A stretch of DNA of 10,014 bases from a virus, in UHGV virus genome UHGV-0084903. The stretch is one strand, 5' to 3'. The notes beneath the pieces were generated by a model that was given only the letters and a program-made list of their open reading frames with translations, made no database searches and had not been told where the DNA came from. This document shows, one piece after another, positions 3,212 to 10,014 of this stretch. Numbering within the stretch: the stretch's first letter is position 1; each line of letters opens with the position of its first letter. The position numbers and the translations under genes were made by a program.

Positions 3212-3783
3212 TGAACAACTTAATGATCGACCTTGAGACGATGGGGAAAAATAAGGATGCACCGATCGTTTCCATTGGCGCGGTGTTCTTCACTCCAGAA
3301 ACCGGAGACATCGGACAAGAATTCTATACAGTTGTTAGCCTGGAAAGTGCTATGGGGCAAGGAGCTACACCTGACGGCGATACCATCCTGTGGTGGTTGA
3401 AACAAAGCCCTGAAGCACGAGCTGCAATCTGTATTGATGATACTTTGTCGATCAGCGATGCTCTCTCAGAACTAAATCATTTCATTAACCGGCACGCAGC
3501 CAATACGAAATATTTAAAAGTCTGGGGTAACGGGGCCACCTTCGACAACGTAATTTTACGTGGAGCTTATGAGCGAGCAGGACAAATCTGCCCGTGGGCA
3601 TACTGGAATGACCACGATGTACGCACGATCGTTACGCTTGGGCGTTCCATCGGATTCGACCCCAAAATGGACATGCCTTTCGATGGCGAACGGCACAACG
3701 CCCTGGCCGATGCCCGTCATCAGGCAAAATATGTTTCCGCTATCTGGCAGAAATTAATTCCTGCCACCAGCACAGAATTATGA
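3211..3783 (+). CDS. DnaQ-like DEDDh 3'-5' exonuclease
   Basis: Exo I motif IDLETMG (D-x-E), Exo II WGNGATFDNVIL, Exo III H-x4-D (HNALADARH). AGGAGG at 3198..3203 is 7 nt from ATG 3211; the GTG at 3208 is an alternative start. Confidence 0.75.
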   Translation: MNNLMIDLETMGKNKDAPIVSIGAVFFTPETGDIGQEFYTVVSLESAMGQGATPDGDTILWWLKQSPEARAAICIDDTLSISDALSELNHFINRHAANTKYLKVWGNGATFDNVILRGAYERAGQICPWAYWNDHDVRTIVTLGRSIGFDPKMDMPFDGERHNALADARHQAKYVSAIWQKLIPATSTEL

Positions 3784-3819
3784 TTTTCCCGGGTGCAGCC
3801 GGTTTTGATGGAGAAAATT

Positions 3820-4101
3820 ATGAACACCTTGTTTTTACTGATGGCTGAATTCAATACCCCTAACATTGAACTCTCAGCAGTTAGCCAAAAGTACTTTGGC
3901 ATGAGTCCAGCCACGGCAGAAGCAAAAGCAAACGCTTGTAAGTTGCCCGTTCCAACATATCGCATCGGCACATCACAAAAAGCAAAACGTTGCATCAATA
4001 TTCAGGATCTTGCGGAATACATAGACAAAAGACGAGAAGAAGGACGTATCGAGTGGGAACAGGTCAGAACAAGCAAACAGAAGGGCAAAGAACATCACTA
4101 A
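3820..4101 (+). CDS. PrtN-family (pyocin-activator-like) DNA-binding protein, excisionase-like
   Basis: MNTLFLLMAEF...YFGMSPATAEAKANACKLPVPTYRIGTSQKAKRCINIQDLAEYIDKRR resembles the PrtN/phage excisionase family. GGAG lies 7 nt upstream of ATG 3820; the in-frame upstream starts (3793 GTG, 3808 ATG) lack an SD. It occupies the xis position upstream of int. Confidence 0.65.
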   Translation: MNTLFLLMAEFNTPNIELSAVSQKYFGMSPATAEAKANACKLPVPTYRIGTSQKAKRCINIQDLAEYIDKRREEGRIEWEQVRTSKQKGKEHH

Positions 4102-4135
4102 AGAAAAAACCCGCCTAAAGGCGGGTTTTCAAAAA
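4102..4135. terminator. Bidirectional rho-independent terminator between convergent genes
   Basis: A-tract (4102..4109), perfect GC stem CCCGCC (4110..4115), loop TAAA, stem GGCGGG (4120..4125), then TTTT (4126..4129). It sits 1 nt after the + strand stop (4101) and 14 nt after the - strand stop (4149). Confidence 0.75.
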
Positions 4136-4148
4136 GCACCAGCTATGA

Positions 4149-4322
4149 TCATGCTGCTTTGCGACGACGAAGCTTACCCTGCTGCTCTTTACCAGAGACA
4201 GTAGCGTGAGTGAACGCATTAGGAGCAGCCTTCATCAGAACTTCAACAGCAGCACCCATACCTGCGAATGCTTTCATTGTGTCGAACTTAACCTGTGGCT
4301 TGGTTGCTTTTTGATCTTTCAT
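4149..4322 (-). CDS. small basic protein (57 aa), unknown function; second gene of the reverse-strand cargo cassette
   Basis: Not in the ORF track (<60 aa). Reverse-strand ATG at 4322 is preceded by GGGAG with 6-nt spacing. Translation MKDQKATKPQVKFDTMKAFAGMGAAVEVLMKAAPNAFTHATVSGKEQQGKLRRRKAA, stop TGA at 4149..4151, followed directly by the strong terminator. Codon choice is enriched in GCT/GGT/CGT/GTT. Confidence 0.55.
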   Translation of the reverse strand: MKDQKATKPQVKFDTMKAFAGMGAAVEVLMKAAPNAFTHATVSGKEQQGKLRRRKAA

Positions 4323-4518
4323 AGAAAACTCCCGAGACAGTAAAGGCGTCTCTAACCCTCTCTTTAAAGCTAGCTTGTTTAGCTAACTTATGCCAATCGA
4401 TCATGTCGATTGGTGACATCGTTTCTTAGTAGTTTAAGCACAAAACGACTGCCATAGATGTACCTTTAAGGTAATCTGGACGGGTATCCTACAATTTGTA
4501 GACCCTTCTCGTCTATAC

Positions 4519-5055
4519 CTACTGAGCAAATTTAAGAAAGATATCCTGCAGCTCATCAATGACTGCAGACATCACATAACCGCACTGTTCCATGCGGAAA
4601 CCAAAAGACTCGTAATACTGCACCAGTTCTGGTACTGGCTCTACAATGTGGACAACTTTACATTCAACAGCTTTACAAAATATAAAAGCACTCATAAGAG
4701 TGAGTAAAACCATGCGCCCTTTCAATGGGTGAGATTCATCTTCTCTAGAAAACCTTTCGATCATATGGATACGAAAGATGTTTTCTTCAACCCCATAAAC
4801 ACAAATTGCTGCTCCTGATGGTATTCCCTGAACCCGACCTTGCTGAACAAGTTTTATGCAGAACTCATACTTTTCTCTGGAGTTGCCATAGGTGCTTAAC
4901 GCATAGTCCCATTCAAGCTCACCATAGCCACCACACAGAATCTTGTAATCATCATCACTGAGCGGACCAACAGCAAGAGGTAAGCCGACATGATCAATAA
5001 TCAACTGGATATTGTTACGTACAGATTGACCTATCTCGTCTAGGGTAAGCATCAT
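4519..5055 (-). CDS. hypothetical protein (178 aa) with GNAT-like acyl-CoA N-acyltransferase fold signature; first gene of the reverse-strand cargo cassette
   Basis: Long ORF in an AT-rich segment. The C-terminal half shows GNAT-like topology (FRIHMIERF ... GRMVLLTLMSAFIFCKA ... VVHIVEP ... LVQYYESFGFR), but the canonical R/Q-x-x-G-x-G/A acetyl-CoA loop is not obvious. Fold assignment is tentative. Confidence 0.6.
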   Translation of the reverse strand: MMLTLDEIGQSVRNNIQLIIDHVGLPLAVGPLSDDDYKILCGGYGELEWDYALSTYGNSREKYEFCIKLVQQGRVQGIPSGAAICVYGVEENIFRIHMIERFSREDESHPLKGRMVLLTLMSAFIFCKAVECKVVHIVEPVPELVQYYESFGFRMEQCGYVMSAVIDELQDIFLKFAQ

Positions 5056-5084
5056 AGACTCTCAAGCGGAACACTAAAAATCTC

Positions 5085-5090
5085 ATTATA
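5085..5090 (-). promoter_or_regulatory. candidate -10 hexamer (TATAAT on - strand) for the reverse-strand cargo operon
   Basis: Perfect TATAAT on the reverse strand about 30 nt upstream of the 178-aa gene ATG. No convincing -35 was found, so this is a weak call. Confidence 0.3.
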
Positions 5091-5137
5091 TCTCATTCTG
5101 ATGCCCCGCATGGATTACACCTTGAAATGAAAACACC

Positions 5138-5371
5138 GGGTTCCCAATAGGCTCCCACAAAGTGTATAACTACTTGTTTTTCAAAAACGGTACATCCTAT
5201 CGAGCATAGGAGCAATGCTAAACCGAGAATTCCAGTAAACACCAGTTTTTTCAGGCATCACGCTGGTTTGATTAATTTTTTGTGTTTCATGATTATCGTG
5301 CATTTTTGAACATTTCAGGCTATTTTTCTCGCGTTAGGTTCCCGCACAGGTTCCCACGTTTTATGGGAACC
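5138..5371. repeat. Cluster of GGTTCCC(A) motifs in the int upstream region, including an inverted pair
   Basis: GGTTCCC at 5139..5145, 5337..5343 and 5349..5355; inverted copy GGGAACC at 5365..5371. The last two form an 8-bp inverted repeat GGTTCCCA-N7-TGGGAACC ending 20 nt before the int ATG. A separate 6-bp IR TCCTAT-N5-ATAGGA lies at 5195..5211. Confidence 0.5.
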
Positions 5372-5391
5372 CGAAATAACGAGGTCGTGTA

Positions 5392-6489
5392 ATGGCGTAC
5401 TATAACATAGAGAAACGACTAAAATCCGATGGCACACCACGCTATCGCTGTAATGTGATTATCAAAGAAAAAGGTGTTATCACTTACAGGGAAAGCAAAA
5501 CATTCCCTAAACATGCTCATGCCAAAACATGGGGAACACAGAAAGTGATGGAATTAGATCTATATGGCATTCCATCATCAAATGCAGTTGACGGACTTAC
5601 AGTCCGTGACTTACTACACAAATATTTAAATGACCCAAATGCCGGAGGTAAAGCAGGCCGTACTAAAAGATATGTGCTGGAACTGCTTATGGATAGTGAC
5701 ATCTCCGCGATCAAACTATCTGAACTGACAGAAAATGACGTAATTGAACATTGCAGGCTAAGAAACAACGCTGGTGCAGGTCCAGCAACAGTCAGCCACG
5801 ATGTTAGTTATCTTGGCAGTGTTCTGGATGCGGCCAAACCTGTATACGGAATTAATTACACATCAAACCCGGCGAAAAGCGCTCGCCCATATCTACTTAA
5901 ACTTGGTTTGATTGGTAAATCAAACCGTCGTAATCGTAGACCAGCATCTGATGAACTGGACATGCTCATTGAAGGCCTTCAACAACGATCTACTCATAAA
6001 TGCTCAAAAATTCCGTTCGTTGATATCCTCAAATTTTCTGTGTGGTCCTGTATGCGGATCGGAGAAGTATGCCGGTTACGATGGGAAGATCTCGACCAGG
6101 AACAAAAATCTATACTCGTAAGAGACAGGAAAGATCCACGCAAAAAGGAAGGCAACCACATGAAAGTAGCCTTGCTTGGGGAAGCCTGGGATATCGTCCA
6201 ACGACAGCCCAAAAAATCGGAATTCATTTTTCCATATAACAGCACTTCTGTTACTGCAGGATTTCAGAGGGTAAGAAGCAAATTAGGTATTAAAGATCTG
6301 CGATACCATGATTTGCGTAGAGAAGGGGCAAGTCGCTTATTTGAGGCTGGTTTTAGTATTGAGGAAGTCGCTCAGGTTACAGGGCATCGTTCATTAAACG
6401 TGCTATGGCAGGTATATACCGAACTGTATCCGAAATCTTTACATAATCGTTTTGAAGAGCTCCAAAGGAGCAGAAATAAGACCTCTTGA
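5392..6489 (+). CDS. int: Tyrosine site-specific recombinase (phage integrase)
   Basis: 365-aa ORF; GAGG 7 nt upstream of the ATG. Catalytic-domain signature: Arg in CMRIGEVCRLRWEDL, H-x-x-R in HDLRREGAS, His in TGHRS and a downstream Tyr (VLWQVYTELY). Confidence 0.85.
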   Translation: MAYYNIEKRLKSDGTPRYRCNVIIKEKGVITYRESKTFPKHAHAKTWGTQKVMELDLYGIPSSNAVDGLTVRDLLHKYLNDPNAGGKAGRTKRYVLELLMDSDISAIKLSELTENDVIEHCRLRNNAGAGPATVSHDVSYLGSVLDAAKPVYGINYTSNPAKSARPYLLKLGLIGKSNRRNRRPASDELDMLIEGLQQRSTHKCSKIPFVDILKFSVWSCMRIGEVCRLRWEDLDQEQKSILVRDRKDPRKKEGNHMKVALLGEAWDIVQRQPKKSEFIFPYNSTSVTAGFQRVRSKLGIKDLRYHDLRREGASRLFEAGFSIEEVAQVTGHRSLNVLWQVYTELYPKSLHNRFEELQRSRNKTS

Positions 6490-6916: not shown

Positions 6917-7204
6917 TTAACGGATCAACATCCAGATCAGCAGACACGCCACCACCGGCACAGCAAAATCCATCAGGCTTGCCACATCCCAAACACGCGG
7001 ATCAAAACCGCCCCACCACGGCATGTTAATCCGCTTGCCATGCCCGAACATTTCAATCCAGCGATATTCTGCCTGGGTGTGTTCACGCGCAATGAAGAAC
7101 GTACAACCAGCTATCGCCCCATAAGCCCAGTTTCCGGTAAAAAGACCAACCAGTGTCTGCGCAGCCACAGCACAAAGCGCATGAAGAAAAGGTGTTATAT
7201 CCAT
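6917..7204 (-). CDS. small integral membrane protein (95 aa, about 3 predicted TM segments), unknown function
   Basis: Strong SD AAGGAGG immediately upstream of the reverse-strand ATG (7204). Three hydrophobic stretches: FLHALCAVAAQTLVGLF, WAYGAIAGCTFFIA, ASLMDFAVPVVACLLIWMLI. Last gene of the reverse-strand tail-fibre block. Confidence 0.65.
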   Translation of the reverse strand: MDITPFLHALCAVAAQTLVGLFTGNWAYGAIAGCTFFIAREHTQAEYRWIEMFGHGKRINMPWWGGFDPRVWDVASLMDFAVPVVACLLIWMLIR

Positions 7205-8210: not shown

Positions 8211-10014
8211 TATATTACCTCTCCCATTTGTGCATCGGTTAATTCTTTATGCCATATACGAAAATTACGAATGTGACCGAAAAGATGACGTAGACCGCTA
8301 TTAGTCTGTCCCCCAATCCTGAAGAAATAACCAGATTTAACACCGACATGATCCGTGGTTTTAGGAGTCCCATGCTGGGCATTGCTAACGAAATGCACAT
8401 TACCAGATTCATTTAAAACAAATCCAAGAACAGATTTTTGTTCAAATAATACTGGCGATACGGCGGCTACTGTACTACCGTTTTTATTGTGCATCGTAAC
8501 ACCAGGAAATAATGTTGAACTAATAGCAACACTTATATATTGACCCGGAGTTGTGCTCCCACCACTGGTATCAAAAATTCGTGGTGCTGCATTTGGCGTT
8601 TCGTTCCAGTTTGTATGAACTTCAGCTAGAAATGTTAAAGGTGGTGTACCGATATTGTTATTTGTTGGTATATTCACCATATCACTGGCTCTTGTGACTG
8701 GCGTTGCCTCAGTAATAATAAACGAAGAAGCGCACGAACCGCCTTCGACCTGAGGAGTTGCAACATAAATATAATCATCTGCACCAGTGCTTCCCCCTTT
8801 TGGTGGTGCATATTGCACCATCGCACCGATCATATTTTCTGTATCAAGTGCCTTAATTGTTGCCTCAAAGAAAATCCATTTGCTTGCTTCATTTTTAACA
8901 GCCCTTGCAGTAATACGACTTGCAGCGCCGCCAGTTTTATCAATCGATAAATCTGTCATATTTAAGTAAGCATCACCCAGGAATTTGTAGGTAGATCCAT
9001 CATATTCTTCAAATCGTAATCGACATCTTAAATTTGGAGTCCCACTTTGTACCCTGCATGAGATAGTTACATACTTTTCATCGCCGGTAACATCATATCC
9101 TTTGCTTCCAGATACTGTGACAATAGAAATGGCTGAGGTTTGCCCCACCATTTCTGGTTTTAATGTGAATTTTGCGTACTGGAAACCAAAATCATCTACA
9201 CCTGATGTATTTAAAATCATATTTGATGACTTGTTCCACTTTGATGGATTTGTGCTGTTTATTAACAGGTTTGTACGCTGCCCTTCAATCAGCAATCCAT
9301 ACTTTTCAAAGCGAGGTTCATCGATTGCAGCCTCTGTCAGCACACCAGATTTATTAATGTAAGTTGCTTTTGATGCGCGTTTAAACTTTACAATCTTGTC
9401 GCCAGGCATTGTTATTTCATCATCACCAATAACAATCTTTTTATATGATGGCGAAAAGCCCGTAATCATATCCAGTGAATCGTTAAACGGTATCCACACA
9501 TCAGGAAGCGGCTGTAAGACATATTTATACGGCTCTGCTGCCTGGCTTGCGTACTCCCTGGCTGCGTCTTCACTTGCTTTTGCAGCCGTCTGGCTTGCAG
9601 CTGATGCTTTCGCCGAGTTAGCAGCCGCAGTCTCGCTCGCCTTTGCGTTGGTTTCACTGGTTTTTGCAGCTTTTTGACTGTTGGCTGATGCAATGGCAGA
9701 AGCAGCCGCCGCGCTTGCAGAACCAGCTGCAGCACTCTCGCTTTGGGCTGCTGCATCCTGACTGTTTTTCGCCGCAGTTTCGCTGGTTTTGGCATTCGTT
9801 TCGCTGGTCTTCGCTGCCGTCTGGCTGGACTTTGCGTTGGTTTCGCTCGCCTTCGCAGCTTTCTGGCTGTTAGCCGCAGCAGTTGCTGATCCAGCTGCTG
9901 AAGTCGCAGAACCGGCTGCCGCGCTCTCGCTTTGGGCTGCTGCAACCTGGCTGTTTTTTGCCGCAGTTTCACTGGCTTTGGCATTCGTTTCGCTGGTTTT
10001 CGCTGCCGTCTGGC
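8210..10014 (-). CDS. stf: Side tail fibre protein (partial; N-terminal part lies beyond the window end)
   Basis: Reverse-strand frame is open from the window edge (10012) to the stop at 8210, 600 aa in-window. The ORF-track 'M' at 9499 is an internal GTG. Upstream part encodes AAKTSETNAKASETAAKNSQ-type repeats like lambda Stf; C-terminus ends ...HLFGHIRNFRIWHKELTDAQMGEVI, resembling the end of LamG/concanavalin-A-like domains. Confidence 0.85.
   Translation of the reverse strand, partial: QTAAKTSETNAKASETAAKNSQVAAAQSESAAAGSATSAAGSATAAANSQKAAKASETNAKSSQTAAKTSETNAKTSETAAKNSQDAAAQSESAAAGSASAAAASAIASANSQKAAKTSETNAKASETAAANSAKASAASQTAAKASEDAAREYASQAAEPYKYVLQPLPDVWIPFNDSLDMITGFSPSYKKIVIGDDEITMPGDKIVKFKRASKATYINKSGVLTEAAIDEPRFEKYGLLIEGQRTNLLINSTNPSKWNKSSNMILNTSGVDDFGFQYAKFTLKPEMVGQTSAISIVTVSGSKGYDVTGDEKYVTISCRVQSGTPNLRCRLRFEEYDGSTYKFLGDAYLNMTDLSIDKTGGAASRITARAVKNEASKWIFFEATIKALDTENMIGAMVQYAPPKGGSTGADDYIYVATPQVEGGSCASSFIITEATPVTRASDMVNIPTNNNIGTPPLTFLAEVHTNWNETPNAAPRIFDTSGGSTTPGQYISVAISSTLFPGVTMHNKNGSTVAAVSPVLFEQKSVLGFVLNESGNVHFVSNAQHGTPKTTDHVGVKSGYFFRIGGQTNSGLRHLFGHIRNFRIWHKELTDAQMGEVI
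9540..10014. repeat. In-frame imperfect tandem DNA repeats (period about 189 bp) within the tail fibre gene
   Basis: Near-identical blocks recur, e.g. the motif ctctcgctttgggctgctgca at about 9736 and about 9925, and cgctggt(t/c)ttcgctgccgtctggc at about 9801 and about 9990. They translate in-frame into Ala/Ser-rich fibre repeats; they are coding repeats, not a CRISPR array. Confidence 0.7.

Follow-up and report, generated by a model that had tools for sequence, protein, structure and literature searches.

What does a GNAT-like protein with a degenerate acetyl-coenzyme A (acetyl-CoA) loop do in the integration region of a temperate phage? This question is raised by a minus-strand gene in a stretch of 10,014 nucleotides from the virus genome UHGV-0084903, referred to as the window, which is the whole stretch of DNA that was analyzed. 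An earlier note, made from the sequence alone, had claimed here a protein of 178 amino acids (aa) with GNAT-like secondary structure and had suggested a toxin, an effector or a modifier of a host or phage target. Here, we present a computational study of this GNAT-like gene and of its small downstream neighbor, p57. The best explanation overall, to which we give an even chance, is that a divergent GNAT acyltransferase and p57 form a self-contained accessory (“moron”) cassette of temperate phages. Its most likely function would be that of a partner-controlled protein acyltransferase in defense or addiction.

The open reading frame (ORF) of 178 codons was found as claimed; it occupies 5055 to 4519 of the minus strand and is a real, conserved gene under selection. 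The true start is probably the second ATG (5052), which yields 177 aa, because the RefSeq gene comprises 534 nt, all homologs start with Met-Leu-(Thr/Ser)-Leu, and the GAGAG Shine-Dalgarno sequence (5063-5059) is located 6 nt from the second ATG and only 3 nt from the first. The protein matches PHROG 4350, a family of unknown function, over the full length (positions 1-178 of 178, E 2e-103). Database relatives number 51, share 43-100% identity and belong to Enterobacterales and Shewanella; an exhaustive profile search with the family led to 99 cluster representatives. Among 5426 complete E. coli genomes, 358 carry the gene (about 7%), including Shiga toxin-producing E. coli of the types O157:H7, O111 and O145, and it also occurs in Salmonella, Enterobacter, Photorhabdus and other genera. 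The exact sequence is named “N-acetyltransferase” in UniRef and hypothetical by NCBI.

It is highly probable, judged from structure prediction, that the protein adopts the GNAT fold. Searches with Pfam and NCBIfam models gave no family for it at E<=1, and the component models of PADLOC-DB v2 matched neither the GNAT-like protein nor p57 nor the distant homologs. The alignment of distant relatives has 76 members including the query, and a Pfam scan of the 75 relatives revealed nothing convincing, with one of them reaching PF00583 at E 0.006. An AlphaFold2 model was built from 45 homologs, with a predicted local distance difference test score (pLDDT) of 78 and a predicted template modeling score (pTM) of 0.78. 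Its N-terminal part consists of helix 5-23, strand 27-30, helices 34-40 and 47-56, and strands 64-69 and 82-88. The C-terminal part comprises strand 93-99, helix 115-129, strand 134-138, helix 142-149, strand 161-165 and helix 166-177, the first four of which stand in the order beta4-alpha3-beta5-alpha4 that had been claimed from the sequence. In the model, the topology is that of GNAT proteins (beta1-alpha1-alpha2-beta2-beta3-beta4-alpha3-beta5-alpha4-beta6) plus one extra helix at each end.

A comparison by AlphaFold and Foldseek, which the earlier note had proposed, points in the same direction: the predicted fold is GNAT and the top neighbors in the PDB are GNAT-fold proteins. Foldseek gave 222 PDB matches at E<=1e-3; each of the 50 best ones listed is either a GNAT-fold acyltransferase or an unnamed GNAT-family deposition, with Ard1, Naa50, RimI, Gcn5, AtaT and SpeG in the lead. 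The nearest structural neighbors are protein N-terminal and lysine acetyltransferases, and a viral structure library returned mainly GNAT-fold proteins, none of them close. At the level of sequence, the bridge to known GNATs is limited to the alpha3-beta5-alpha4 region. A profile of the wider family placed N-acetyltransferases on top of the PDB sequences with sub-significant E-values of 0.08-1; the profile of the close family hit only gp41 and designed armadillo repeats, which were discarded as spurious. With hhalign, the RimI sequence (verified as 5isv), used both singly and as a shallow profile for which the homolog search gave only orthologs at least 80% identical, aligned in alpha4-beta6 only, with a probability below 5%. 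This alignment places Y148 on Tyr115 of RimI (YESFGF versus YESLGF) and does not fix the register of the acetyl-CoA loop, since it covers alpha4-beta6 only. The alpha4 motif also aligns to 9ilr, Naa50 and GNA1.

The catalytic-Tyr motif in alpha4 of the GNAT superfamily (Tyr-x-x-x-G-F) is represented by Y148 and G152/F153, within the YESFGF sequence (residues 148-153) that had already been pointed out. W49 and Y148 are invariant in relatives down to about 20% identity; L47, E100, F102, L111, G152 and F153 are conserved in at least 90% over the same range, and D36, N58, K68, H97, H109, P110 and G113 are further residues fixed in the close family. Y148 holds the position of Y144, the alpha4 Tyr that is essential in AtaT (PMC7595197). 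H97 and E100 are located in or at the end of beta4. In Gcn5-type enzymes the general base lies in this region, and E100 or H97 may take its place here. The loop, described in the earlier note as degenerate, indeed departs from the motif A consensus Q/R-x-x-G-x-G/A: residues 108-115 read S-H-P-L-K-G-R-M, and G113 within HPLKGRM (109-115) is the one Gly left. In the subfamily of the phage Eeyore type, even this residue is replaced by Arg (HPLRRKM). In AtaT, G108 is essential (PMC7595197). Compared with the usual length, the beta4-alpha3 loop (100-114) has about 5 extra residues, and its pLDDT is low. Conservation of the Tyr and the Glu speaks for an enzyme rather than a dead scaffold, and we consider it reasonably likely from the conservation pattern that the protein is active. 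It can serve as a test case for how far the acetyl-CoA loop of GNAT enzymes diverges while the catalytic Tyr stays.

The second component of the cassette is p57, which belongs to PHROG 2741, a phage family of unknown function. In 32 of the 35 sources examined, the GNAT-like gene has p57 as its co-oriented downstream neighbor; for the homolog-bearing loci sampled from Escherichia to Shewanella, the tally is 34 of 35. Of the 358 E. coli genomes that carry the GNAT-like gene, 356 have both genes in one contiguous block. Shewanella and Edwardsiella show the same pairing with GNAT-like proteins that are only 43-46% identical. Substitutions in p57 are mostly synonymous and at third positions, the pattern of an evolving coding sequence. 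No close homolog of the GNAT-like gene was seen without p57, whereas p57 alone is tolerated (562 complete E. coli genomes with p57 versus 358 with the GNAT-like gene), so that an independent role of p57 is possible. That the two genes constitute a functional two-gene module is quite probable.

The two proteins differ strongly in charge: p57 has a pI of about 10.5, and the GNAT-like protein has a pI of 4.8 (family median 4.5) and a net charge of -10. No Pfam or NCBIfam model matches p57, its conserved pattern is FDT..MGAAV..L.KAAP...E.QGK...KAA, and the AlphaFold2 model (pTM 0.32) shows a single helix at residues 15-32, flanked by disordered tails. The C-terminus is nearly always Ala-Ala (conserved ...R-R-K-A-A, with ...K-A-A or similar Ala-rich ends), a feature which we take, as a lead only, to resemble the C-terminal tags recognized by ClpX. 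A role of p57 as inhibitor or antitoxin-like partner is a tentative proposal. As a separate observation, a plasmid of Enterobacter kobei (L015 3992-4828) harbors a 27%-identical GNAT-family homolog beside genes for a Y-family polymerase, an SOS-response-associated peptidase (SRAP) and RdgC; it is followed by a 57-aa ORF, which has the size of p57 without detectable similarity to it and may be an analogous partner.

The two genes are co-oriented with no predicted terminator between them, and a spacer of 100-320 nt separates them in every paired locus. Its hairpin stems in the window are UUACCUU/AAGGUAA, ACCAAUCG/CGAUUGGU, UAGC/GCUA and GAGAC/GUCUC, the last one directly 5′ of the p57 Shine-Dalgarno sequence. 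Spacers with hairpins were also observed at L012 5639-5788 and L038 3541-3690. In some lineages, and not in others, the spacer folds significantly more stably than shuffled controls (minimum free energy z -2.9 to -3.5); RNAalifold gave 26 pairs with 1 compensatory change, and an Rfam scan of the window had no match. The covariation is too sparse for the spacer to be accepted as a proven RNA element. Upstream of the cassette, a -10-like hexamer is found about 30 nt before the start in 7 enterobacterial loci, which represent three genomic contexts; the predicted promoter of the window (TATAAT, 5090-5085) has no good -35. At the other end, the terminator at 4105-4130 is predicted to end both the xis and the cassette transcripts. 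A terminator-like site at 4702-4689 was rejected as it lies within the coding region and at chance level. The features are collected in Table 1.

Table 1. Coordinates of the cassette, its candidate signals and neighboring features (window positions unless a locus is named).
Feature	Position	Strand	Basis
Predicted GNAT-fold protein gene	4519..5052 (177 aa; alternative ATG 5055, 178 aa)	-	Identical to mEp460 gp23 / WP_000956557; PHROG 4350
p57, basic partner of 57 aa	4149..4322	-	ORF; PHROG 2741, E 8e-36 over 1-57 of 57
Inter-gene spacer, 196 nt	4323..4518	-	Hairpins recurring across genera; alignment
Candidate promoter and ribosome-binding site of the cassette	5059..5090	-	Perfect -10 TATAAT (5090-5085), GAGAG Shine-Dalgarno (5063-5059); relaxed hexamer scan
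Bidirectional intrinsic terminator (predicted)	4105..4130	.	11-bp GC-rich stem with flanking A/T runs; terminator scan, perfect inverted repeat I5
Exchangeable cargo: GNAT-like gene, promoter region and spacer	4336..5138	.	blastn breakpoints, window 3701-4335 and 5139-5500
Phage mimic of the dusA 5′ end, contains attP	5181..5303	-	40 codons, then stop; translation MHDNHETQKINQTS...APMLD
PrtN-family excisionase	3793..4101	+	PF11112, E 4e-23; PHROG 1300 excisionase
Tyrosine integrase, dusA-specific type	5392..6489	+	PF00589, E 1e-20; PHROG integrase matches
Panacea-pair loci	L016 3319-4307; L017 3319-4307; L035 3214-4202; L036 3214-4202		

The genes that flank the cassette differ completely between genomes. 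In E. coli and Salmonella it occupies the dusA edge of prophages, and in Franconibacter, Enterobacter and phage Eeyore it is located right after the antiterminator gene Q and before the holin and lysozyme genes. In a P2-like prophage of Edwardsiella it resides between gpA and the portal gene, i.e. in the old/tin locus (gpA-gpQ), which is known as an anti-phage hotspot (PMC9122126). Further slots are between tail and baseplate genes in Photorhabdus, adjoining an S24 (cI-like) repressor gene in Brenneria, and 1.1 kb from Cas3/Cse1 in a Xenorhabdus locus (L012) whose examined flanks showed no phage genes. An exchange was also found within a single slot. The window matches the sibling dusA phages SKA5 and Lys8385Vzw and some E. 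coli chromosomes up to 4335 and again from 5139 onward. The replacement consists of an antitoxin gene with a SocA/Panacea domain (PF13274 SocA_Panacea, E 2e-19) and an ORF of 128 or 139 aa (139 aa in SKA5 and Lys8385Vzw) that overlaps or closely adjoins it, has no family match and presumably encodes a toxin not yet characterized; p57 remains in place downstream and makes up the third gene. The placement in accessory and defense slots together with the conserved pairing makes a module of phage-host conflict probable, and we put an accessory or conflict role of the cassette at slightly better than even.

Several other genes were observed in or near these slots. One E. coli prophage (L035 1827-2861) carries a gene for a “competence protein CoiA” (344 aa) between the excisionase gene and p57, which lets the xis-attP interval look like a hotspot for multiple cargos. 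Inside the gpA-gpQ hotspot of the Edwardsiella prophage (L039 982-2448), the pair is preceded by ORFs of 243 and 235 aa that have hydrophobic N-terminal stretches and no Pfam match on record. A prophage with a Q-linked cassette (L031 6058-6351) encodes, just past its lysis genes, a protein of the Acb2/Tad1-hairpin type (PF24729, a family of anti-CBASS/Thoeris sponges). In a cassette-bearing prophage of Enterobacter (L027 1-509), a cloacin/colicin-type toxin (PF03515, PF09000) and its immunity protein (PF03513) are encoded a few genes upstream.

The window belongs to a lambdoid temperate E. coli phage, of which it covers the integration and early-left region. Its segment 4100-5400 is nearly identical to phage mEp460 (97.9% identity), and E. 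coli prophages and circular phage records match the window at 99.9%. The gene order is PAPS-reductase-like, DUF551, Rv2179c-type 3′-5′ exonuclease, excisionase, the two minus-strand ORFs, the dusA mimic with attP, integrase, DinI and tail-fiber genes. Two types of junctions exist in E. coli genomes, 5056-5306 and 5200-5420, and RefSeq annotates truncated as well as full dusA. From the truncated dusA frame and the two junction types, the crossover would lie within about 5200-5306. After integration, the host dusA promoter and the first ~35 codons face the GNAT-like gene and then p57 (seen also at L002 6100-6204), and the terminator scan predicted no terminator between this promoter side and 4130. 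The phage copy of the dusA 5′ end rebuilds dusA on the integrase side, in line with what is described for the family of dusA integrases (PMC4482086). Since the dusA promoter faces the cassette without a terminator, expression in the lysogen is predicted to be plausible, and the cassette may capture this promoter for lysogenic expression.

Three further features of the window lie apart from the cassette. The PAPS-reductase-like gene of the early-left operon (155-1033; PF01507, PHROG 424) is classed by PHROGs as moron/auxiliary metabolic. A hydrophobic ORF of 95 aa on the minus strand (6917-7204), between dinI and the tail-fiber assembly gene, has no Pfam match, belongs to PHROG 1443 (unknown function) and may be another small accessory gene. 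From 9466 to 10014, the composition shifts sharply (GC 0.56, AT skew -0.49) and both strands show repetitive frames rich in Lys, Pro, Ala, Gln and Arg; a tail-fiber gene that runs past the end of the window probably has its repeat-rich part here.

For the accessory cassette of a divergent acyltransferase and p57, the following mechanism is proposed. Transcription in the lysogen would start from the own promoter of the cassette and/or come as read-through from the host dusA promoter. The enzyme would bind acetyl-CoA or another acyl-CoA via its non-canonical beta4-alpha3 loop and acetylate a protein, at the N-terminus or at lysine, rather than aminoacylated transfer RNA (tRNA). The single helix of p57 would bind the GNAT-like protein; p57 would be a labile regulator, an inhibitor resembling an antitoxin or, possibly, a substrate. 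The outcome would be addiction to the prophage, abortive infection or the exclusion of competing phages. Several points weigh against this explanation: the acetyl-CoA loop is off consensus and its last Gly is not kept throughout the family; the protein escapes all sequence models of Pfam, NCBIfam and PADLOC; about 200 E. coli genomes have p57 but lack the GNAT-like gene; the long spacer is atypical for type II toxin-antitoxin (TA) operons; and the placement after Q implies late lytic expression, which fits counter-defense as well as defense.

A more specific proposal, which we regard as doubtful yet worth stating, is an undescribed two-component family of phage conflict systems. Here, an acidic GNAT with a degenerate loop would be checked by a disordered, protease-labile, basic p57 whose synthesis is set by a structured leader RNA, and the freed enzyme would acetylate a specific target protein in the host or in an invading phage. 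Both the mechanism and the kind of partner would set such a family apart from the GNAT/DUF1778 toxins that acetylate tRNA.

Unlikely is an acetyltransferase for counter-defense or host takeover, similar to AcrVA5, that would acetylate and thereby inactivate an immune or housekeeping protein of the host, with p57 as specificity or regulatory subunit. The protein is encoded by phages, its structural neighbors are protein N-terminal and lysine acetyltransferases, many copies directly follow the antiterminator gene Q and are predicted to be co-transcribed with late genes, and a precedent is given by acetyltransferases of the AcrVA5 type without mutual sequence similarity (PMC10799925). In the window, however, the cassette runs convergently to the early-left operon, a terminator insulates it, and its position lets the host dusA promoter read into it in the lysogen; elsewhere it occurs in the P2 old/tin hotspot of anti-phage systems and beside cas genes in Xenorhabdus.

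Rather unlikely is a toxin of the TacT/AtaT/ItaT type, which would stop translation by acetylating aminoacyl-tRNAs, with p57 as an unconventional antitoxin. AtaT and TacT bind tRNA through a dimer surface that is positively charged (PMC7595197), whereas the GNAT-like protein and its family are acidic. No DUF1778 or ribbon-helix-helix (RHH) partner is present, since upstream lie attP and dusA and the sole conserved neighbor is p57 downstream; the gene order is reversed and the spacer is long. No Pfam model of GNATs or toxins matches, and in the structural comparison toxins do not score above N-terminal acetyltransferases. These points weaken the assignment to tRNA toxins. Of the suggestion in the earlier note, the divergent GNAT thus stands, and a tRNA toxin of this type becomes unlikely, as the protein is acidic, lacks a DUF1778 partner and has the reversed gene order.

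Two other possibilities are quite unlikely. The first is a lysogenic-conversion gene for the acetylation of a small molecule, such as an antibiotic, a polyamine or a metabolite. The structural scores for this reading are no different from those for protein acetyltransferases, the strict small-protein partner and the exchange with a TA-like pair are unexpected for a resistance gene, and none of the loci examined shows a resistance-gene context. The second is a GNAT-fold pseudo-enzyme, a scaffold without acyl-CoA binding that acts by binding p57 or another protein. The degenerate loop with its replaceable remaining Gly, the low model confidence of the beta4-alpha3 loop and the failure of all sequence models would fit such a scaffold. 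Against it stand the invariant Y148 and the nearly invariant E100 at the positions of the GNAT general acid and base in very divergent relatives. Moreover, GNATs bind the pyrophosphate mainly through backbone amides, so that degenerate side chains are not decisive and do not prove lost binding.

The reversed roles, p57 as a small toxin neutralized by the GNAT-fold protein as reportedly in YjhX/YjhQ, are very improbable and were rejected, because p57 persists alone in those ~200 E. coli genomes, which is unexpected for an unneutralized toxin, even though the opposite charges would suit this arrangement and the lysine-rich p57 could be an acetylation substrate.

The accessory cassette of acyltransferase and p57 can finally be compared with known systems. 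The GNAT assignment as such is not new, because the automatic UniRef name already contains it. In the literature searched on the accession of the protein, on mEp460 and on GNATs in defense, there was no description of the protein or the pair; the p57 pairing, the structured spacer, the movement among accessory and defense hotspots and the exchange with a Panacea pair appear to be undescribed there. Should the cassette serve in addiction or against phages, the defense repertoire would gain a system built on a GNAT and a novel type of partner, which would also help to explain the cargo in variable slots of lambdoid, P2-like and Mu-like prophages.

Compared with the N-terminal acetyltransferases RimI, Ard1/Naa10, Naa50 and NatD/Naa40, identity is only 9-16% and not significant. 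The GNAT-like protein differs from them in lacking the Q/R-x-x-G-x-G/A loop and any Pfam match, in being phage-borne and in its pairing with a protein of 57 aa. With TacAT, AtaRT, ItaRT and KacAT it shares the GNAT fold, the alpha4 Tyr and the mobile two-gene module, and its slot also hosts another TA-like pair. The GNAT/DUF1778 family is defined by an upstream DUF1778/RHH antitoxin (PMC9177977, PMC6698736); here, in contrast, the small gene lies downstream behind a spacer of 100-320 nt, the protein is acidic, the loop Gly is not conserved and DUF1778/RHH is absent. AcrVA5-type proteins are small acetyltransferases of phages and mobile elements that can be recognized only by structure and target a protein (PMC10799925); the likeness is one by description, and the partner and the placement at prophage edges and in defense hotspots differ. 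The integron cassette Brc113, which encodes a GNAT-domain protein and was picked out by a phage-defense screen (bioRxiv 10.1101/2024.07.02.601719), shows that GNATs can occur in defense roles; compared by description, it has a recognizable GNAT domain and is a single-gene cassette. The pairs of Panacea (SocA/PanA) and toxin, in turn, are positional analogues only, with unrelated proteins in the same position between p57 and attP, and the genes of a pair overlap or are spaced by about 30 nt as in classical TA operons, whereas the GNAT-like gene and p57 keep their distance of 100-320 nt.
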